DNA from: Candidatus Methylomirabilis oxygeniifera
Lineage (GTDB): Bacteria > Methylomirabilota > Methylomirabilia > Methylomirabilales > Methylomirabilaceae
DNA length: 32,000 nucleotides
Direction of reading: 5' to 3'
Assembly: GCA_000091165.1 (NCBI GenBank)
Contig: FP565575.1
Span: forward strand, 510,001 to 542,000
In this document: one piece after another, positions 3,777 to 32,000 of the stretch
Position numbering within the stretch: position 1 is the stretch's first letter
Layout of the letters: each line of letters opens with the position of its first letter
The notes under the pieces: model-generated
Seen by the model: the letters and a program-made list of their open reading frames with translations, nothing else
The model's database searches: none
What the model was told of the DNA's origin: nothing
Program-made: the position numbers and the translations under genes

Positions 3777-3907
3777 ACCTTGTGACTGACGAACCGTTAT
3801 TGAGCGGATACATGAAGTAATCGGCATGTTGCCCATGGCCGTGCCCACCCAGTGTCTCTTACCCTACCGCCTGAATTGCTGGATCACGTCATCGTTGCCT
3901 CCCTCAT

Positions 3908-3983
3908 GGCGGCGTAGCCAAGTGGCTAAGGCAGAGGTCTGCAAAACCTTTATTCGGCGGTTCGAGTCCGCCCGCCGCCTCCA
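3908..3983 (+). tRNA. tRNA-Cys (anticodon GCA), CCA encoded
   Basis: Acceptor GGCGGCG/CGCCGCC, anticodon stem GAGGT/ACCTT with loop CTGCAAA, T-arm GGCGG-TTCGAGT-CCGCC, then T plus CCA. Confidence 0.92.
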
Positions 3984-7325: not shown

Positions 7326-8246
7326 TTAGGGAGCCTCCCGCAACTTGAACGAGACGCTGTAATACCGCACGTCGATATTCGTGGTCATCTCCAACGCGTA
7401 GGACAGTTTCGGATCGGGGTCACGGCAGATAACCAACCCCTTCACAGCCTGACCATCCGAGCAGATATTTTTCTTGACCCAACCCATATACCTTAGAATT
7501 TGGCCAATCACCTGATCCGACGGACGGCCTTTCTTGAGTTCAATGACGACAAACGACTCGGACTTAGGCTCGACTGCCAAAATGTCTATCGGACCAATGT
7601 CAGTAGCGTACTGCTGACTGTCATTGCCGTCGGCGTCCTCGAAGATCTTGAGCTCGCCTTTGAAAATCGTAGCGAAATTGCTTACGACGAAGTCTTCCAG
7701 GTACTTCTCCAGAACAAACGCATTGGGGTCTTCAATTGGTTCAGGCGCCTGCGACGGAACTATTGGTAGTCCGGCGCCTTCAACGAGGGCGTGGAACTGC
7801 TCCTCCGAGAATTCGGCGAGCGTGTGCATTGGGAAGACCACTCCGGGGAACGGCTTATCGCGCGGTTGTTCGTGCCACGAGACTTTCAGGAAGTTCTGGT
7901 GCGTATGTGCAGGATTCCTGCCCGGGGCGTAGAACGCTGGTTCGCTGACCGTACCCACGGCCGCGAGGGTTTTACGGCCTCTTCGGGCGACCACGATGTC
8001 ACCAGGGTAAATCTCGTGGTAGAAGGCCCAGAGCATGTTGGCAAAGAGACCCTTCGTTTGTTGCGGCTTGTCCGGATATGTTGACGCAACCACTTCGGAC
8101 AACTCTTGCCGGTTCACCTTCGAGACATCACCGAGCTGCGTCCAACCAATGGAGATGAGGTCGTTGGCCAAGTCGAACTGCCACACTTGGTCAAACATCT
8201 CTGTCGGCTTCGCCTCAACAGGAGCGATTACCCAATAACGTGGCAT
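7326..8246 (-). CDS. Two-domain protein with an unknown N-terminal domain and a C-terminal NucS/DUF91-like PD-(D/E)xK nuclease domain
   Basis: 306-aa ORF. The C-terminus has DIGPIDILAVEPKSESFVVIELKKGRPSDQVIGQILRYMGW, a D…E-x-K core followed by a Q-x-x-x-Y helix as in NucS-type endonuclease domains. The N-terminal ~150 aa (YWVIAP…ISIGWTQLGDVS…GDIVVARRG) was not recognised as a named family. GC looks lower than in the flanking genes by eye. Confidence 0.6.
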   Translation of the reverse strand: MPRYWVIAPVEAKPTEMFDQVWQFDLANDLISIGWTQLGDVSKVNRQELSEVVASTYPDKPQQTKGLFANMLWAFYHEIYPGDIVVARRGRKTLAAVGTVSEPAFYAPGRNPAHTHQNFLKVSWHEQPRDKPFPGVVFPMHTLAEFSEEQFHALVEGAGLPIVPSQAPEPIEDPNAFVLEKYLEDFVVSNFATIFKGELKIFEDADGNDSQQYATDIGPIDILAVEPKSESFVVIELKKGRPSDQVIGQILRYMGWVKKNICSDGQAVKGLVICRDPDPKLSYALEMTTNIDVRYYSVSFKLREAP

Positions 8247-11240: not shown

Positions 11241-12191
11241 ATGGTTCGGCCGCAAGGTGAAATGACCATGACCGGTACTACGAATCCGAATCCGTCACCC
11301 CGTCGTATGCACGACCGGCGCTACTTCTACAAGTACGTCACCACCGATGTCGCGAAGATCGTAATGGCGACTCGCAAGCTGCGTTGGAGTTCCCCGTTGA
11401 AGTTCAATGATCCTTTCGACGTTACCCAACAGCTCCGTTTGCCCTTCAGTGCCGACGATCTCAACCTCGCCCTCGCTCAGCAACTGGCCGCGCTCTTTGA
11501 GACAGGCGATCCGACCCTGGTCCGGCAGCCTCTCGCCCGTACTCTGCTGCAGTTTGCTGGCGCGATGACTCCGCAGTCGCGAGCTCAGGTTGCCGCCAAG
11601 CTTCGGTCCGATCCCCGTGTCGCCACCCCAGGGAGGATCGACTCATTCAATGAGCTTCGGATCGTATGGCACGAAGTGGTTCCGCGTCTGCGAGCGCTGT
11701 GCCTCTCAGAAAGCTACGAGATTGTGCCTATGTGGGCGCACTACGCGGAGAATGGCACGGGTGCGGTGCTGGAGTTCGAAGCCATTGACCATCTAGATAG
11801 TGTCTTTCTTATGGCTCGCAAAGTAGTCTACCAAGACACGCCGCCAGCAATAGCAACGCCGCCGGCTTAGGCGCAATGCATGCTGGGCACGTCCAAGACG
11901 TCTTACATGGACCTGTTTTCCGAGCTGATGTACGTGAAGACTACTCCATGGTCCTACGAGAGGGAGTGGCGGCTCGTGACCGTGGCGCGGCTTGATGACG
12001 CAGATCTGCATGGCGATTGGGGCTTCCACCCTCAGGAACTCGCTGGAGTCTACCTGGGGCCGAGGTGCTCGGGTCAACATCGGGAAGACATCATGGCGCT
12101 CCGCGCCATGGGACTCGATCACATTCGTGTTTGGCAGGCTGCCGCGAATCCCGAACAGGGAACGCTGGAGTTTCAGCCGCTTGAGCTGTGA
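11241..12191 (+). pseudogene. DUF2971-family protein interrupted by one in-frame TAG (11868-11870)
   Basis: The N-terminal ORF carries the family signature YFYKY…LRWSSPLKFNDPFD. ORF 11880..12191 is in the same frame (both starts are 0 mod 3) and carries the C-terminal signature TTPWSYEREWRLV. Only the TAG plus three sense codons lie between the two listed ORFs. Confidence 0.7.
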
Positions 12192-22656: not shown

Positions 22657-22920
22657 ATGCCCCAAACCACGACCATGACCGTAAGGCTTCCCGCCCAGGT
22701 GAAGGCTCGCCTCGAAAAACTCGCCAAGTCCACGGACCGCTCCAAAGCGTACCTTGCAAGCCAAGCCATTGAAGAGTACCTAGACGTCCAGGAGTGGCAA
22801 GTCAAGGCCATTAAGGACGCCATCCGCGAAGCGGACTCGCCGAGCCCAGTGTTCTATGAACATGAGGAGGTACAGACCAAGCTCAAGAAGCTGACCGCCA
22901 AGAGGCGCAGGACGGAGTGA
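22657..22920 (+). CDS. Ribbon-helix-helix (CopG/ParD-like) antitoxin
   Basis: 87 aa. MTVRLPAQVKARLEKLAKSTDRSKAYLASQAIEEYL is an RHH motif. It overlaps the downstream toxin by 4 nt. Confidence 0.8.
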   Translation: MPQTTTMTVRLPAQVKARLEKLAKSTDRSKAYLASQAIEEYLDVQEWQVKAIKDAIREADSPSPVFYEHEEVQTKLKKLTAKRRRTE

Positions 22921-23195
22921 AGGTCCGTTGGCTGTCCCGCGCCGCCGACGATCTGGAGTACCTCTATGAGTATATCGCTCAGGATAACCCAGAGGCCGCT
23001 GCCAGTGAGGCGGGGAAAGTGCTGGAAGCCGTGAAGCACCTCGCAGACTATCCCGCCTCTGGACGACCCGGAAGGGTCCCGGGCACTAGAGAGCTGGTCA
23101 TCTCACGGTACATCGTGGCCTACCGGGTCAAAGACGGAGTTGTCCAGATTCTCCGTGTCCTCCATGCGGCCCGCAAGTGGCCCGAGAGTCTCTAA
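22917..23195 (+). CDS. parE: ParE/RelE-superfamily toxin
   Basis: 92 aa. …AADDLEYLYEYIAQDNPEAA…YPASGRPGRVPGTRELVISRYIVAYRVKDGVVQILRVLHAARKWP is typical of ParE. Confidence 0.85.
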   Translation: MKVRWLSRAADDLEYLYEYIAQDNPEAAASEAGKVLEAVKHLADYPASGRPGRVPGTRELVISRYIVAYRVKDGVVQILRVLHAARKWPESL

Positions 23196-23310
23196 CCAGT
23201 CCCCCTGAAAACCCATCCCGGTCCTTGTGTTCTCTGCCCATCCATGGCTATCTGAAGTCCCCTTTGGAAAGCTGAAGGTGAAAGCTGGCTCTTTCAATCC
23301 ACAGGGAGTT

Positions 23311-23450
23311 GATTCCCCGCGACTTGCTGCGAGTTCGTCATACCGGCGGAAGCCGGTATCTAGAGGGCTCGACTGGATTCCGTGTCAAGCACGGAATGAC
23401 GGGCCAGAACAGAAGACGATACCCCGCGACTTGCTGCGGGGTAGTTCATT
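23311..23450. repeat. Composite REP/MITE-like element: ~30-bp direct repeats flanking two perfect hairpins
   Basis: DR1 GATTCCCCGCGACTTGCTGCGAGTTCGTCAT (23311-23341) and DR2 GATACCCCGCGACTTGCTGCGGGGTAGTTCATT (23418-23450). Hairpins are ATACCGGC-GGAA-GCCGGTAT (23340-23359) and ATTCCGTG-TCAAG-CACGGAAT (23377-23397). Confidence 0.55.
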
Positions 23451-27152: not shown

Positions 27153-27156
<4 letters not shown>

Positions 27157-27554
27157 GATGCTTTCTCCTTGAACTCCAGCGCAGCGGAATTGATGCAGTA
27201 CCTGAGATGCGTCGGTGCCGGACCATCATGAAAGAGGTGACCGAGGTGGGCGTCGCACCTGCTGCAGAGTACCTCAGTTCGCCTCATGCCAAGGCTGTGA
27301 TCAGCTTCGGTTCTTACGGCTTCGTCCGCAATCGCGGCCCAGAAGCTCGGCCACCCAGTACCGGAGTCAAACTTGGTGTCTGAACTGAATAATTCACTCC
27401 CACAACAGACGCACTCGAACATTCCCTTGTCGTGCAGGTTGTGATACGCCCCTGAAAAGGCTCTCTCCGTCCCTTTCTTCCTGGTCACATAATACTGATC
27501 TTCAGTGAGCTGCTTGCGCCACTCCTGGTCAGTCTTGATGACTTTGTCGGCCAT
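27153..27554 (-). CDS. msrB: Peptide-methionine (R)-S-oxide reductase MsrB
   Basis: Start trimmed to the ATG at 27554 (GGAGGG upstream). Both CxxC zinc motifs are present ([18 protein letters not shown]), as are GTGWPSF and the catalytic RYCINS. The stop overlaps the GH63-like start by 4 nt. Confidence 0.92.
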
Positions 27555-28010
27555 AGTGAATCCCTCCCCAGATGAGTACTCTTCCCCCCCCCATAGGGCG
27601 ATCAGATCATAGCACGTCATAGCACTCGCTCAGGGTCGAATGCTCGGAACATTTAGCCTCCCACTTACCGCTCACTTTTTTTGACGCCGTTCCAAAGAAA
27701 AAGGATTCGTGAAATTCGGAATGAGAAAGGGGGCAGTAATTGGCTTAGATTGTTGGAGGGTGGAGGGTACGGCGGTGCGCTTCTGGAGAACCTTCCTCAG
27801 GGAGGGAATCGAATAGCGTGGATATCTTCAGACTCTTTCGGAAATCGTGTGGGTAATTGACCCCACCGGCGCGATGCTCAGACCCTCGAAAGGAGACTGT
27901 TCGGGTTTATCCGACCCGCAAGCGAGCAGCGGTCAGGTGGAACGGTTTGGGGATAACCCGCGCCGGGCGGAGCAAGACGCGGGTTCATCGCCTTGCTACG
28001 CTGCCCTCTG

Positions 28011-28655
28011 TTACGAGAAATGCTTGACGAGCAGCGCCTCCGTGAATCCGAGGATACTGGCAACCTCTGGGCGATCAACCTCGGTCCACTTCGCATGGAG
28101 TGCGCGATTGCGAAACGACAGATACGATTGAGCAATACCGACCTGGGCGCCCTGCAGCACATCCTTCTCTTTAAGAGCGGTAACTACGTCAGCCAGTTTT
28201 TCTTGATGTGGAAGCCCAGCCGAGGCAGCGAGACGCCTGAGAGAGTCTTCGAACGCCGCAGCAGCAAGCACCGCCGCAACGTTCTTGGTGGCCTCGCCAC
28301 CTTCATCGGAGACGGTTCTGGCAAGCTTGATCAAGTCGCTTAGGACCTCGCTTGTAACTGCATCGCGAAGGCTTCCCAACATCCCTACTTCAACATCGGC
28401 CTGAATCGCTTGAAGAACGCCTCGAAGCACATTTATCGAAGAATCTACACTGGCTGGGACCCCTGGATAATAAGATTTCGCAATTCGATCAAGTGCATTA
28501 CACATATCGCGTTCACGACTACTGTCACGCCCGTACAATACGTGTAGGAGACCTAGCGTTCCTTGATGTACCCTGTTCTGCACCTCAAGGTTTTTGGACC
28601 CCTGGGAGTCTTGGAGCAGATCCTTTAGGCGCACTTTGATCGCTTCTACGTCCAT
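28011..28655 (-). CDS. Hypothetical protein with a C-terminal HEPN-like Rx4H motif
   Basis: 214 aa, predicted all-helical. The C-terminus …LADVVTALKEKDVLQGAQVGIAQSYLSFRNRALHAKWTEVDRPEVASILGFTEALL contains R-N-R-A-L-H in a DUF4145/HEPN-like context. GC looks lower by eye. No partner gene in the same operon. Confidence 0.5.
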   Translation of the reverse strand: MDVEAIKVRLKDLLQDSQGSKNLEVQNRVHQGTLGLLHVLYGRDSSRERDMCNALDRIAKSYYPGVPASVDSSINVLRGVLQAIQADVEVGMLGSLRDAVTSEVLSDLIKLARTVSDEGGEATKNVAAVLAAAAFEDSLRRLAASAGLPHQEKLADVVTALKEKDVLQGAQVGIAQSYLSFRNRALHAKWTEVDRPEVASILGFTEALLVKHFS

Positions 28656-28788
28656 GAATTTACACCTGCCTCAGATGCCGCATGCCGTCAATCTAATGTC
28701 TCGCTCCGGGAGCACGCCGCTTGCTGCGCATCCCGCTTGACTGTAATGTTAGACTGCCTGGAGTTGCAATCAATGCAACTACACGCCA

Positions 28789-29124
28789 TTACTTTTCGCA
28801 CCTAAATCGGAGGGTTACATTGCCAGCCGCGAAGGTTCCGCCACCGGCGCCACCACCGTGAGCGTTCCACGATGCTCCAGCCGCGCTTTGGTATATATCT
28901 CGCTCTCTTGCATCGACTACAATTGCTCGACCGCCTTTGGCGCCGCAAAACTTCTGCGCCTCCTCATACGCGATGGCGTTTGCACCTGCGGTTCCACCAC
29001 GTACAGGCGCAGCCCTAGCAGAAATGATATACGTGCCTCCCTCAGCTTCCATAACACCACTGGTAGTGGCACACGCAGCTATTAATAATGACAGCGCAAC
29101 GACCCCCACGAGATATATTCTCAT
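28789..29124 (-). CDS. Small lipoprotein, unknown function
   Basis: 111 aa. Signal peptide plus lipobox LLIAAC. The start codon lies ~48 nt downstream of repeat copy 1. Confidence 0.6.
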   Translation of the reverse strand: MRIYLVGVVALSLLIAACATTSGVMEAEGGTYIISARAAPVRGGTAGANAIAYEEAQKFCGAKGGRAIVVDARERDIYQSAAGASWNAHGGGAGGGTFAAGNVTLRFRCEK

Positions 29125-29171
29125 GTTGTCCCTTTTAATGTATTGTCACAAATAGCTTGGCTGCGAACATG

Positions 29172-29327
29172 CTGGTCTGTATAACACCAGCCAAGCCCCC
29201 TCACGATTTACGGGATTTTCCTGCTGTTTCGCAGCCTTGTCAACGGAATTTCAACATGGCCCATAGGGACACAGGCCGCCCCGATGGTCGGCATAATCCT
29301 AATGGGGCCGACCACGCCGGCTTACGG
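29172..29327 (-). repeat. Cassette-punctuating repeat, copy 1 (~145-nt family)
   Basis: Aligns with copies at 30330-30476 and 31644-31787. Shared core (plus strand): CTGGTCYGTAYARCAC…ACGATWTRCGGGATTKTCCTGCYG…CAGMCTTGTCAAYGGAATTTCAAC…ATAGGGACAMAGGC…. Confidence 0.85.
29215..29243 (-). promoter_or_regulatory. Promoter inside repeat copy 1, facing the lipoprotein gene
   Basis: Minus strand: TTGACA (29243-29238), 17 nt, then GAAAAT (29220-29215). Confidence 0.45.
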
Positions 29328-29471
29328 AAGACGCTGACGCCATTTAGCAGGATTGCGAGACGTGTGAAATACGCCGTGGGCGGTCACCGCGCCCTTAACA
29401 TGCTCGTAGAACACCGCGTAGGGAAGGCGAGGCTCCAGCGAGTGGTCAGCCGGAGCCGACCGGCGACGACA
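29322..29471 (-). pseudogene. 5'-truncated ParE/RelE-type toxin remnant (last ~48 codons)
   Basis: The open frame reads …LEPRLPYAVFYEHVKGAVTAHGVFHTSRNPAKWRQRLP*, a ParE C-terminal pattern (FPY.v.Y…v.i..v.H..R.P). An in-frame TAA lies upstream at 29474-29472, and there is no start codon or N-terminal half. Confidence 0.45.
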
Positions 29472-29515
29472 TTAGGCGGCATTGAGCGCTGAGTCGGCCG
29501 GAACTCTGTGAGTGT

Positions 29516-29784
29516 CTACGCCGCGCGAAGGGGCGCAAGATCCCCACGCTTCGCCGGGGACACTCCCAAGCTGCGCAGGATCCGATTCAGGGCTGCAAGC
29601 GTGACCTTAGACGGGGCGGTAATTTCAATCCCAATCGGTTGACCATGCCGATTGAAATCGATCAGGAGGCCGGGCGCGGCCACGGCCGTTCGGCAGCTTT
29701 TTCCCCTGGGCGACGAGGCAGGTAGTAGTAGGCGGCGAGCGCCCGACCATGGCGAAACGTGACTTCCAGAAAGGGCTCCTTCAC
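29516..29784 (-). pseudogene. DUF2283-like small protein (GIEI motif) with an apparent 1-nt deletion
   Basis: GTG at 29784 with AGGAG 7 nt upstream. Frame a reads VKEPFLEVTFRHGRALAAYYYLPRRPGEKAAER…. Frame c continues …AVAAPGLLIDFNRHGQPIGIEITAPSKVTLAALNRILRSLGVSPAKRGDLAPLRAA*. The span is 269 nt (3n+2). The shift falls within about 29680-29705, next to the run GGGGAAAAA. Confidence 0.55.
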
Positions 29785-29818
29785 GTCACGACTCCTCGTG
29801 CGGTTGGCCCGACCGGAA

Positions 29819-30031
29819 TCACGCGAAGATTAGACGCCGTCCTTTTGGAATAGGAATCGGATCGCCAAACTCCTTGGCCGTGTCAAGCCAGAGGCCAATA
29901 GCCTCTTGGATATTGACCAGTGCTGCTTCCTGGGAAGCACCGTGTGCCATGCAGCCAGGAAGCTCAGGGGCCTCAGCCACGAACGCCTGATCCTCATCGC
30001 TCCAATAGATGATAACCTCGTACTTGTTCAT
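29819..30031 (-). CDS. hicB: HicB-family antitoxin
   Basis: 70 aa. YEVIIYWSDEDQAFVAEAPELPGCMAHGASQEAALVNIQEAIGLWLDTAKEFGDPIPIP is a canonical HicB N-domain. It overlaps hicA by 4 nt. Confidence 0.85.
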   Translation of the reverse strand: MNKYEVIIYWSDEDQAFVAEAPELPGCMAHGASQEAALVNIQEAIGLWLDTAKEFGDPIPIPKGRRLIFA

Positions 30032-30282
30032 TCCGCCTCACCTGCAAGTCCGTACGTCAGAATAACGTTTCGGACCTGCTTGACCTGATACGGCTTCGCC
30101 TCGTGACCTTCACGCTGAAGGTTCAGTTTCTCCTCAATTCCTGCGCGGCGGAAAATATGATGACTCCCGCGAACGCGCATCTCGAACCCCAGGCTTGTCA
30201 ACAGGTGGCAAAGGTCGTCGAAATCAAGATTTGCGTCGGACGTGCCGCTGAGGACACGACGAAGAACTTTGCCAGTGCTCAT
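30028..30282 (-). CDS. hicA: HicA-family toxin
   Basis: 84 aa. …[47 protein letters not shown]… is a HicA/YcfA pattern. Confidence 0.85.
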
Positions 30283-30329
30283 GCGACCATTCTACCTTGC
30301 GAAAGAACTTCTGGCTCACTACGATTAGA

Positions 30330-30476
30330 CTGGTCTGTATAGCACCCAGCCCAAGAATTCTTACGATATGCGGGATTGTCCTGCCGCCTCTCAGCCTTGT
30401 CAATGGAATTTCAACGGGGGCTATAGGGACAAAGGCTGCCTTGTGCCTGACTACAAGGGGGAACGAGACGGGTTAC
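30330..30476 (-). repeat. Cassette-punctuating repeat, copy 2
   Basis: Same family as copies 1 and 3. It is the most divergent copy. Its distal hairpin has a different sequence (CCTTGT/ACAAGG, 30439-30458) at the same position. Confidence 0.8.
30375..30403 (-). promoter_or_regulatory. Promoter inside repeat copy 2, facing hicA-hicB
   Basis: Minus strand: TTGACA (30403-30398), 17 nt, then GACAAT (30380-30375). Confidence 0.45.
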
Positions 30477-30587
30477 GCGGGGTCAGCGGCTGCGTGAGAA
30501 GCCCCCGTGATCTTCGTTCGGAGGAAGTGTCGGACACGTTTTCGCATCGCCGGCGTGATGGTAATATTTCGAGGCGGCCTACCGTGA

Positions 30588-30662
30588 AGTTAACCGGCGC
30601 GGGCCACGACAACCAACATTGTGCCGGCGGAACACGGCGTCCGGGCAAACGCCGGGTTAGGC
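30588..30662 (-). other. attC-like imperfect hairpin overlapping the higA stop codon
   Basis: Minus strand: GCCTAAC (a perfect RYYYAAC containing the higA TAA), then CCGGCG…, 49 nt, …CGCCGG, then GTTAACT (near GTTRRRY). TAACC(C)GGCG pairs with CGCCGGTTA, giving 9 bp with one bulged C. Total length 75 nt. Confidence 0.3.
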
Positions 30663-30950
30663 CGCCGTGAGCCGCAGCTTGCCAACTTTGCCGAGCTTGA
30701 GACGCTGTTTCGCTTGCCAGAGATCATGGTCGTTCTGCATAGCAAGCCAGCTCTCAGGAGAACGCCCGAGGGCCTTGGAGAGCCGCAGCGCCATTTCCGG
30801 ACTGATACGGCTGGAGCCCACCAGAATACGATGCAATGTCGAAGGTGCCACACCGAGCTTTGCAGCCAGCTCCCGGCCGCTCAGGTTATTCGGCTCCAGA
30901 TAGACCTGAGTGATGAACTCTCCGGGATGGGGTGGATTGTGCATAGCCAT
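30657..30950 (-). CDS. higA: HigA-family HTH (XRE) antitoxin
   Basis: HPGEFITQVYLEPNNLSGRELAAKLGVAPSTLHRILVGSSRISPEMALRLSKALGRSPESWLAMQNDHDLW is canonical HigA. Start is ATG 30950 (or TTG 30953), overlapping the TGA of the higB remnant. Confidence 0.85.
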   Translation of the reverse strand: MAMHNPPHPGEFITQVYLEPNNLSGRELAAKLGVAPSTLHRILVGSSRISPEMALRLSKALGRSPESWLAMQNDHDLWQAKQRLKLGKVGKLRLTAA

Positions 30951-31042
30951 CAATGATAATCCTCATAATCCAAGACGTAGGCGTGTCCGTCTTTGAATGC
31001 GAAGGTTACGCGCCGGTTCCCGTGCCCTTGTTGGCCCTCTCT
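30950..31042 (-). pseudogene. higB: HigB toxin remnant (last ~30 codons only)
   Basis: REGQQGHGNRRVTFAFKDGHAYVLDYEDYH* matches the HigB C-terminus (…R..F.f.dG.a..vdyeDYH). An in-frame TAG lies at 31045-31043. The upstream space is occupied by the parE 3' end. Confidence 0.5.
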
Positions 31043-31055
31043 CTATTCGCCTGCC

Positions 31056-31353
31056 TCAACGGCGGCCGCGCCAATAGAAAGGGCGCCTCTTCTGGTGCGC
31101 TACCGCCAGTAGTCTGACCTCGTCAGGCCGAACGGAGTAAACCAGAGAGTATGGGAATCTGACGAGGGGTTTCTTCCGCACACGTCCGCGGACGAACTGA
31201 GCCGCTTCCGGGAGACTGAGAGATGCTCTCTGCGCCGCGTTCGACCTCGTCGATGAACACACTGCCGAGCCCCGGGTCTTCGAGGTCGTAGAAGTCGGCT
31301 GTTTCGTTGATCTCGACCTCGGCCGTCTCGTGGATCGAAAATCGTCGGCTCAT
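31056..31353 (-). pseudogene. parE: ParE-family toxin with an apparent 1-nt insertion (frameshift near 31195-31215)
   Basis: The N-terminal frame reads MSRRFSIHETAEVEINETADFYDLEDPGLGSVFIDEVERGAESISQSP…. The C-terminal frame reads …PEAAQFVRGRVRKKPLVRFPYSLVYSVRPDEVRLLAVAHQKRRPFYW. The span is 298 nt (3n+1). The junction is at TCTCCCGGG. Confidence 0.7.
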
Positions 31354-31574
31354 TTTCGGCGAGCCCGCGCCCGGGCAAGCACTTCGTCCGCCGGGTACGC
31401 GCGGGCCGCGCCACTGTCGAGTTCCTCATCGCGCCGAATCGCTTCGTCGATCCATAGCTTTTCAATTTCTGCCTCACTCAGTGCGTCTAAACTGGCGAGC
31501 AGTTCGCGAGCCAGACGCGCACGCGCTGCCGGATTCAGGCGAAGGGCCTCTTCTCTTAGTTCGTCAACGTTCAT
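31350..31574 (-). CDS. Addiction-module antitoxin (Unstab_antitox type)
   Basis: 74 aa. …LSEAEIEKLWIDEAIRRDEELDSGAARAYPADEVL… is the characteristic W..E..RR..E…G motif. It overlaps parE by 4 nt. GGAGG Shine-Dalgarno. Confidence 0.75.
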   Translation of the reverse strand: MNVDELREEALRLNPAARARLARELLASLDALSEAEIEKLWIDEAIRRDEELDSGAARAYPADEVLARARARRK

Positions 31575-31643
31575 CTGCGCACCTCCAATTTCATTTGCGG
31601 TGTTCCTTATCGTCTTCTATTTTCCGGGCCAATTATGATTACG

Positions 31644-31787
31644 CTGGTCCGTACAACACAGCCCCAAAATTGCTCACGATATGCGGGATTTTCCTGCCGT
31701 TTCGCAGACTTGTCAACGGAATTTCAACAGGGCCCATAGGGACAAAGGCCGCCCCGACGGTCGGCATAATCCTGATATGGCCGACCA
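31644..31787 (-). repeat. Cassette-punctuating repeat, copy 3 (ends ~28 nt from the recombinase stop)
   Basis: Closest to copy 1. Includes the distal hairpin GGTCGGC…GCCGACC (31759-31786). Confidence 0.85.
31688..31716 (-). promoter_or_regulatory. Promoter inside repeat copy 3, facing the antitoxin-parE pair
   Basis: Minus strand: TTGACA (31716-31711), 17 nt, then GAAAAT (31693-31688). The -35 overlaps the direct repeat GTTGA-N6-GTTGA. Confidence 0.45.
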
Positions 31788-31815
31788 ATGCTGAGGTCGT
31801 GCGGGTGTGCACGGG

Positions 31816-32000
31816 CTACGGACTGCGAACCCCTCTGCTGCCTCGGTTCAACACATGGGTGTAGATCATCGTCGTACTGACATCCCGATAACCCAGCAAC
31901 TCCTGGACAGTGCGAATGTCATAGCCATCTTCGAGGCGATGTGTAGCAAAGGAATGGTGAACCTTACTGAAAATTGCGGCTGGGGGTGGCGAGGTTAGCG
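31816..32000 (-). CDS. intI: Integron-integrase-like tyrosine recombinase, C-terminal 60 codons (5' part lies beyond the window end)
   Basis: The minus-strand frame reads …[46 protein letters not shown]. The block [21 protein letters not shown]…G-GV-SP, containing the catalytic Tyr, is the pattern I associate with IntI proteins. The IntI-specific insertion cannot be assessed from this fragment. Confidence 0.65.

Follow-up and report, generated by a model that had tools for sequence, protein, structure and literature searches.

The window analyzed here is a stretch of 32,000 nt from the genome of Candidatus Methylomirabilis oxyfera, and all coordinates without a locus label are positions in it. 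Its end, from about 27.9 to 32.0 kb, together with about 0.4 kb beyond, probably represents a decayed sedentary chromosomal integron array of the 'reverse' type, in which the Pc-attI module of the integron platform, consisting of an outward promoter (Pc) and the insertion site attI, is present once in full and twice as a 5'-truncated copy. The repeated element found between the short genes of this region would be this module, and not the cassette site attC, because its position, the orientation of its promoter and its sharp GTT boundary match the Pc-attI region of reverse integrons. Contigs compared with the window carry locus labels (L-numbers); L001 (GCA_009026205.1, contig WBTX01000004.1) is identical to the window region and was used, as was L042, to read beyond the window end.

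In the reverse integrons of Treponema, intI, Pc, attI and the cassettes are co-oriented, with Pc and attI just downstream of the intI 3' end (PMC4909258, PMC3607928), and each integron has one attI (PMC3607928). In Treponema denticola cassettes are joined at GTT and stop codons often lie inside the R'' box (PMC4909258, PMC3607928). M. oxyfera agrees with this layout in that the intI tail, the promoter, the GTT junction and the cassettes are all on the minus strand, as expected from the descent that an initial annotation of the window had proposed, and in that the stop codon of higA lies in R''. It differs in that intI is a relic of 48 codons, the module is present three times, attC is below detection by models, the array is short and fixed in the species, and the host belongs to the phylum NC10/Methylomirabilota. 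The co-orientation of intI remnant, element and cassettes holds also in L010, L030, L033, L035 and L063. With its triplicated attI/promoter module such a relic is unusual, but it is not a new kind of system.

The ancestral layout would have been, on one strand, dnaE2, intI, a segment with the hairpin, the outward Pc and attI ending in the GTT core, and then the cassettes. By the rules of integron biology, a circular cassette would have been inserted by IntI through a crossover between its folded attC and attI at G|TT, and the module promoter would then have transcribed the newly inserted cassette. In the present state intI is down to 48 mutated codons, most toxin genes are broken and the attC sites are eroded below model detection; since each module copy keeps its promoter, the array would now consist of three blocks, each with its own predicted promoter. 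We infer past IntI-mediated insertion, as we do the origin of the extra copies.

Integrase remnant and proposed Pc-attI module

According to the list of open reading frames (ORFs), every ORF between 28.0 and 32.0 kb is located on the minus strand. The intI pseudogene remnant (31816..31962, minus strand) comprises the last 48 codons, corresponding to residues 279-326 of IntI1, and a TAG stop. It is 73% identical to these residues (tblastn with IntI1), scores 81.6 bits with the integron integrase model TIGR02249 versus 56 bits with XerD, and matches positions 134-169 of Pfam PF00589; of its catalytic residues, R280 is replaced by H and H303 by Y. The higher TIGR02249 score points to IntI as the family of the stub, as the initial annotation had read its C-terminus. 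The same annotation had the window end inside a recombinase gene, which is not the case: IntI homology stops at about 31962-31985, some 20-40 nt inside the window end (L001/L042), and no further intI was found beyond the window end in the source contig (L001/L042). The locus is not a functional integron, because intI is reduced to a stub and the region of the additional domain is gone.

Beyond the stub, L001 contains a 3' remnant of dnaE2 (..GVTGTLQAEHGVVYFIADRL*), an unrelated higB-higA pair within about 200-600 nt, and then a divergent PBP1A gene. The remnant of dnaE2, which codes for an error-prone polymerase, is located at L001:9400-9560 and directly precedes the intI remnant. In L033 (5520-8926) an intact dnaE2 is followed immediately by an N-terminal piece of IntI, for which integron-integrase models gave the only matches. 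As dnaE2 adjoins intI in both M. oxyfera and L033, the integron integrase is ancestrally linked to this SOS-mutagenesis gene.

The repeat was modeled with a hidden Markov model (HMM) of 303 positions, built only from copies outside the window. It matches the window at 31623-31923 (R3, E=3e-73, including the intI tail), at 29153-29315 (R1, E=2.5e-37, model positions 133-296) and at 30316-30441 (R2, E=2e-29, model positions 167-291), and a 19-mer core of the repeat occurs three times in the window versus 0.00 expected. Of the repeated element of about 145 nt in the initial annotation, the three copies are confirmed, but the core measures 126-165 nt, and identity between any two of the copies is no more than 77-80% (74-78% with the core window set slightly differently); their spacing is 1.16-1.31 kb.

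R3 (31627..31786, minus strand; alignments and HMM) is the full copy and is contiguous with the intI tail, as also seen in L010, L030, L033, L035 and L063. It runs from a GC hairpin (GGTCGGCC..GCCGACC) through a 20-mer and the promoter to the junction ATAATCATA|ATTGGCC, where the R' box (31633->31627) has GTT mutated to ATT. The promoter scan predicts an outward promoter, TTGACA-17-GAAAAT (31688..31716, minus strand, 10/12 match), reading into the first cassette. R2 (30313..30441, minus strand; HMM) is a 5'-truncated internal copy of about 126 nt with the junction GTGAGCC (30319->30313) and the predicted promoter TTGACA-17-GACAAT at 30375-30403. R1 (29162..29315, minus strand; HMM), also internal and about 155-165 nt long, starts at the hairpin and has the junction GTTCGCA (29168->29162) and the predicted promoter TTGACA-17-GAAAAT at 29215-29243. 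The GTT core is thus mutated in R2 (GTG) and kept in R1 after a 7-nt deletion. By HMM no intI tail is present in the upstream flanks of R1 and R2; an apparent similarity of the R1 flank to the intI tail was due to the C-terminus of parE.

Genome and metagenome collections were scanned for the core 19-20-mer, with chance matches filtered by the HMM. This delivered six more true copies, from the genomes L010 and L013 and the metagenome contigs L030, L033, L034 and L035; with two further copies in the congener L063 (A63 and BC63) and those of the window, 11 are known, seven of them directly 3' of an intI C-terminal remnant. Core identity among the copies is about 70-94% over about 125 nt and drops in all 11 to 15-37%, the level of unrelated sequences, right after TATAATCATA|GTTRNNC. 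Read in gene direction, the element contains a GC-rich hairpin, the 20-mer, a sigma-70-like promoter, a small hairpin and TATAATCATA-GTTATGC. The 20-mer GTTGAAATTCCRTTGACAAG is matched by 10 of the 11 copies (in the window at 31709-31728, 30396-30415 and 29236-29255, minus strand), with a single change in A63, and the -35 hexamer is invariant across all 11. A promoter is predicted in three of the three window copies, where the consensus scan gave 5 sites in the region versus 1.6 expected.

The 20-mer GTTGAAATTCCRTTGACAAG holds a direct repeat, GTTG-N7-GTTG, which overlaps the -35 hexamer. It resembles direct-repeat LexA boxes (GTTC-N7-GTTC) and could be a candidate SOS operator or a set of accessory IntI-binding repeats.

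No global hairpin or two-fold symmetry was found in the element on either strand, its alignment fold consisting of a terminal hairpin and small local stems. The element was accordingly rejected as an attC or a structured RNA, in agreement with the initial annotation, to which the repeats did not look like canonical attC sites. In a search of 26-32 kb against Rfam (E<=1) the sole match was a chance one, of MAT2A_F (23 bits) to the small hairpin of R1, so that no known RNA family is matched, and no group II intron end was detected. A small ORF through the element (57-59 aa, MPTVGAAF..PVEIPLTSLRNGR..) was judged non-coding, as 1-nt indels between the copies break its frame and the copies do not share a start codon.

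To find intact relatives, a composite query was assembled from the two termini of IntI, but it proved to be biased to naturally truncated 'mini-IntI' ORFs. Many of these, with 117-140 aa, occur in several phyla of the public protein collection (e.g. P0005, P0006, P0025 and P0071). They fuse the N-terminal ~55 residues of IntI to the C-terminal ~55 residues and could be recurrent internal-deletion pseudogenes or a real family of small proteins. In the ENA metagenome contig L065 (4340-11900) a 123-aa mini-intI is followed by co-oriented RibD_C, BrnT/BrnA, GFA, AbiTii and MazE genes, with attC-model matches on the same strand at 11666-11722 (E=0.03) and 8099-8166 (E=0.8). This is another, independent reverse integron with a different attI region, and the element is absent.

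Junctions, attC sites and related genomes

If the GTT heptamer at the element boundary is the R' box left by insertion, the attC of the cassette should begin with the complementary R'', and the predicted R'' heptamers were therefore sought downstream of each junction. In L035 the junction GTTATGC has its counterpart GCATAAC at +638 (7/7), which opens a textbook attC of 72 nt (GCATAAC-CTTTC-GCTCAAC...GGTTAGC-TTCAC-GTTAGAT). The junction GTTAGAC of L013 is answered by GTCTAAC at +1035 (7/7), and GCTATGC of L030 by GCATAAC at +710 (6/7). In the window, the R3 junction ATTGGCC corresponds to GGCCAAC right after the parE of cassette A (6/7). The chance of each exact 7-mer in about 1 kb is roughly 0.06, and it is therefore unlikely that three or four such coincidences at ORF ends arose by chance. 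The G|TT insertion site beside intI that marks an attI is recognized here by the logic of the sequences alone.

For the detection of attC, class-1 integron arrays were fetched from plasmids and nine attCs were parsed, all with the architecture R''-5-3bp-bulge-6bp-bulge-3bp. Aligned at full length with MAFFT, the class-1 attCs were too uneven to yield a model, and the covariance model was built from collapsed seeds instead; it is home-made, and its E-values are rough. In a positive control on 120 kb it found 15 of 15 real attCs, with lengths of 60-114 nt, and gave one weak false match. With filters off, it matches L010 at 1909-1968 (23.9 bits, E=0.005) and L013 at 3893-3958 (20.4 bits, E=0.035), in both cases on the cassette strand and downstream of the element. 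The attC of L035 scores weakly with this model; a second, lineage-augmented model R2, to which seeds from L010 and L035 were added, gives it 24 bits, the L035 site itself being one of the seeds. A naive scan for AAC...GTT combined with hairpin energy was dropped, as the array did not stand out in it from ordinary coding sequence.

Parsed by hand, the best preserved attC of the window follows higA (30577..30662, minus strand, 86 nt; inverted repeats and fold). It reads GCCTAAC-CCGGC-GTT-T-GCCCGG-A-CGC...GCG-CCGGTT-AAC-TTCAC-GGTAGGC and has the canonical architecture, with the higA stop codon inside R''. In its R' the GTT is changed to GGT, because of which the covariance models miss it. Its 18-nt 3' half differs from the L035 attC by two mismatches; no other sequence of the window matches as closely, and about 1e-3 such matches are expected. 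After cassette A a relic of 45 nt (30992..31036, minus strand; hand parse and heptamer search) reads GGCCAAC-AAGGG...GCGTAAC-CTTCGC-ATTCAAA and is too short to fold as attC. A degenerate attC-like relic after the 214-aa gene at the distal end (27937..28001, minus strand; folds and hand parse) reads GCGTAGC-AAGGC-GAT-G-AACCCGCG...CGCGGGTT-ATC-(7-8 nt)-GTTCCAC. R''-like heptamers are also located 10 nt past the stop of hicB (GGCCAAC, 29809->29803) and 35 nt past the stop of the lipoprotein gene (GTCTAAC, 28754->28748). Four of the seven gene-strand RNYYAAC heptamers lie 0-35 nt after terminal stops, a zone of about 6.5% of the region. As attC relics and R''-like heptamers follow the terminal stops, the cassette structure is real but eroded.

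Two side observations concern attC sites of relatives. In L010 (1909-3803, Methylomirabilota metagenome-assembled genome FeB_30) the element is located about 90 nt upstream of the glutamate dehydrogenase gene gdhA, and the best attC match follows gdhA and a 136-aa ORF; a housekeeping-type gene thus appears to take the place of a cassette, despite a mismatch between the junction and R'' heptamers. In L013 (3957-4217, Methylomirabilis sp. bin48) a group II intron (RF02001, D1-D4, 131.5 bits, E=2e-27) begins with GTGTG exactly where the R' of the first-cassette attC is expected, on the cassette strand; in a class-1 example, L058, the intron maturase gene and the cassettes lie on opposite strands. 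One lineage of group II introns (group IIC-attC) targets attC (PMC3001079).

Each contig on which the identical antitoxin, HicA or lipoprotein was found is colinear with the window, at 97-100% identity. In the congener GCA_040960765.1 (L063) the locus lies between the same flanks, with Cupin_5-PBP1A at one end and msrB...GH63 at the other; the GH63 of the congener belongs to the same 90%-identity protein cluster as the GH63-like glucosidase of the window, which is identical to CBE67694.1. The congener shares the truncation point of intI with M. oxyfera, but the cargo between the flanks is entirely different. It includes an extracytoplasmic function (ECF) sigma gene, a presumed zinc-finger anti-sigma ORF and the element copy A63, followed by a DUF4258 toxin-antitoxin (TA) pair, HigA and hydrolases, and then by an intI tail with copy BC63, DUF4145, PIN_12, a methyltransferase and others. 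Cargo is different again in L010, L013, L030, L033 and L035. The segment 30473-30565 of the window, about 90 nt between the attC of higA and R2, has homology to the 3' end of the presumed anti-sigma ORF, which in L063 comes after the ECF sigma gene and lies immediately upstream of A63; since the segment is the 3' end of the same gene, R2 is the positional counterpart of A63. Multiple module copies are a shared, old feature of the locus, because L063 also holds two copies and R2 matches A63 in position.

BC63 is split inside the 20-mer core by an insertion of about 215 nt (L063:9654-9870) resembling a miniature inverted-repeat transposable element (MITE); its terminal inverted repeats are GGTAGTGTCCTAATT / AATTAGGACAGCACT, and 9 bp, CCCCGTTGA, are duplicated. 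Another MITE-like repeat, at about L063:14320-14450, reads GTGTAGTCCC...GGGGACACTACAC. Between msrB and GH63, L063 carries genes for a pyridine nucleotide-disulfide oxidoreductase and an alcohol dehydrogenase that are absent in M. oxyfera.

Alternative explanations and known systems

A number of results speak against a reverse integron array. The region of the IntI-specific additional domain is absent from the 48-codon stub, and the composite IntI query found no full-length intI followed by the element in the public protein collection, because of which attI was assigned from its position and the logic of the junctions. An activity of the element promoter is predicted from a consensus match only. 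Among the junctions, those of L010 and L063 have no matching complementary R'' box. With filters off, neither the class-1 nor the lineage-augmented attC model matched the window at E<=10, the attC calls in the window being hand-parsed relics, and L063 contains no convincing attC. Copy similarity does not track positional orthology. The search for identical HicA, lipoprotein and antitoxin found none in an alternative context; the array is fixed within the sampled M. oxyfera, and current activity is without support. The initial annotation, which had suggested attC models and a comparison of cassette content as checks, named missing attC matches and invariance among relatives as grounds for giving up its proposal; taken literally, the result with the home-made covariance models and the invariance among close M. 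oxyfera strains would be such grounds, while the comparison with the congener L063 did show different cargo. The integron origin is kept because relatives show junction/R'' complementarity, attC matches and different cargo between the same flanks.

The strongest competitor, a substantial one for the origin of the extra copies though improbable as a whole, is that general (RecA-type) recombination and not IntI multiplied the module copies and turned over the cargo, so that the locus would be a homology-driven hot spot of integron descent. Possible routes are Campbell-type insertion of an 'element + cargo' circle, unequal crossing-over, and uptake of foreign DNA anchored on the ~150-nt element. 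M. oxyfera and its congener share the same intI truncation and have different cargo behind the intI-adjacent copy, from which it follows that cargo changed after the death of intI; still, this turnover could be the work of an IntI located at another place in the genome and active in trans. The direct repeats flanking the cargo blocks are as expected of single-crossover insertion, and a detectable attC is missing from most of the cargo. The window copies are no closer to each other than to copies in other genomes, and their similarity is reticulate, R2 being 86% identical to BC63 but 82% to its positional counterpart A63, a pattern that suggests gene conversion or imported copies. As the copies are as divergent mutually as across species and the congener has two, multiplication is either old or involved imported copies. 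The junction/R'' complementarity in L035, L013, L030 and cassette A, on the other hand, points to the G|TT crossover of an IntI; the two models are not mutually exclusive, RecA-type recombination being compatible with an integron origin. A more speculative proposal, which we regard as doubtful, is that the Pc-attI module became an autonomous, multipliable unit of promoter plus docking site which received cargo after intI had died, through IntI in trans or homology-anchored recombination. If true, there would be multi-attI integrons with arrays split into independently transcribed blocks, a distinct escape from the rule that only promoter-proximal cassettes are expressed.

The initial annotation had considered an undescribed cassette architecture, in which the ~150-nt repeats would be the lineage's own non-canonical replacement of attC. 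The repeats do punctuate the array at intervals of 1.16-1.31 kb, and in class 1/2 integrons partial attI copies (delta-attI) can take over the function of attC (PMC12901181). We consider this very unlikely, as the element lacks two-fold hairpin symmetry on either strand and most genomes have a single copy, joined to the 3' end of intI, where it forms the intI-distal segment of the platform; moreover, canonical attC sites are present in the same lineage, several separate TA modules and attC relics are found from one repeat to the next, and behind the last genes of the array there is no copy. Even harder to reconcile with the data is an origin without any integron, by which the region would be an ordinary TA/defence island, the repeat a promoter-bearing intergenic repeat or MITE, and the recombinase a chance relic of phage or XerC/D-like type. 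The failure of attC models and Rfam families to match in the window fits this, as do the MITEs in this region of the congener and the variation between species, as in any island; but the recombinase fragments score best on integron-integrase models (the N-terminal one only on those), the repeat has neither terminal inverted repeats nor a target duplication and is found only beside intI tails or inside the locus, and relatives provide evidence for attC.

In degenerate chromosomal integrons and clusters of attC sites lacking integrases (CALINs) the integrase is lost or inactive while the array persists; they are rich in TA genes, which are thought to stabilize arrays. Cury et al. in 2016 reportedly defined a CALIN by two or more model-detected attC sites in the absence of an integrase. 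The locus of M. oxyfera would not qualify, because zero attC sites are detected by models in the window; it differs from a CALIN in keeping the attI/Pc module best, and not attC.

The closest precedent for the internal module copies is delta-attI, partial attI copies inside the arrays of class 1/2 integrons (Gonzales Machuca et al. 2026, PMC12901181). They keep 8-238 nt beside the crossover, are truncated on the far side, can replace attC and recombine with IntI1 (PMC12901181). R2 and R1 are likewise internal and crossover-proximal, reach the junction end, are 5'-truncated and lack the intI tail. Whereas the delta-attI copies of clinical mobile integrons are near-identical and their recombination with IntI1 has been demonstrated, the M. 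oxyfera copies are known from their sequence, are 77-80% identical, belong to a chromosomal reverse integron, carry a predicted Pc and have GTT cores of which two are mutated.

A lineage of reverse-type chromosomal integrons would hereby be placed in Candidatus Methylomirabilis (NC10), which are nitrite-dependent methane oxidizers; of five papers in the library searched that name integrons as well as Methylomirabilis, none describes such a lineage. The locus would offer a picture of late decay in which the attI/promoter module outlasts intI and attC. Standard integron finders would probably report nothing at this locus, because they are keyed on intI and attC models, and searches for conserved attI-side modules could reveal more integron relics. 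The three promoter-bearing attI copies would be a chromosomal counterpart of delta-attI and suggest, without proving it, a route by which distal cassettes regain expression. The shared intI truncation with different cargo in two congeners raises the question whether an orphaned attI is still recombinationally active.

Gene content of the region

The array is short, with about seven cassette-like units, and conserved chromosome resumes at about 27905, about 30 nt beyond the last attC relic (alignment with the congener L063). Family searches and translations agree with the mostly TA genes on one strand that the initial annotation had listed, and the TA units are indeed cassette-like; most toxin genes of the TA cassettes are frameshifted or truncated.

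Cassette A (31056..31574, minus strand) consists of an Unstab_antitox antitoxin gene (31350-31574, Pfam PF09720, E=1e-10) and a frameshifted parE in two frames (31123-31353 and 31056-31262), the second of which contains the C-terminal part of ParE_toxin. Cassette B (30657..30997, minus strand) contains the last ~15 codons of higB (30950-30997, ..FKDGHAYVLDYEDYH*), recognized by frame translation and comparison with the intact HigB of L001, and an intact higA (30657-30953, TIGR02607, 104.8 bits). Between the attC of cassette B and R2, about 30 codons remain of the 3' end of a gene (30473..30565, minus strand) which, from reading the L063 ORF sequence without a family search, would code for a zinc-finger anti-sigma factor.

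Between R2 and R1, on the minus strand, are the apparently intact genes hicA (30028-30282, Pfam PF07927) and hicB (29819-30031, Pfam PF15919), a frameshifted DUF2283-like gene (29516-29784, weak Pfam DUF2283 match) and, from translation reading alone, a parE/relE C-terminal remnant (29322-29426, ..LPYAVFYEHVKGAVTAHGVFHTSRNPAKWRQRLP*). They are followed on the same strand by an ORF for a putative lipoprotein of 111 aa with a lipobox-like N-terminus (28789-29124, no Pfam match) and by a HEPN/HepT-like protein of 214 aa (28011-28655), for which the HepT match is weak and below the cut-off (E=0.002) and no Pfam match was obtained.

Outside the array, a separate parE/ribbon-helix-helix (RHH) TA pair is located at 22657-23445 (L001 18380-18918), beside which two 28-nt direct repeats (GATNCCCCGCGACTTGCTGCG..) lie 107 nt apart (23311-23338 and 23418-23445). 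The msrB ORF at 27153-27620 codes for 155 aa, while public annotations use a form of 133 aa.

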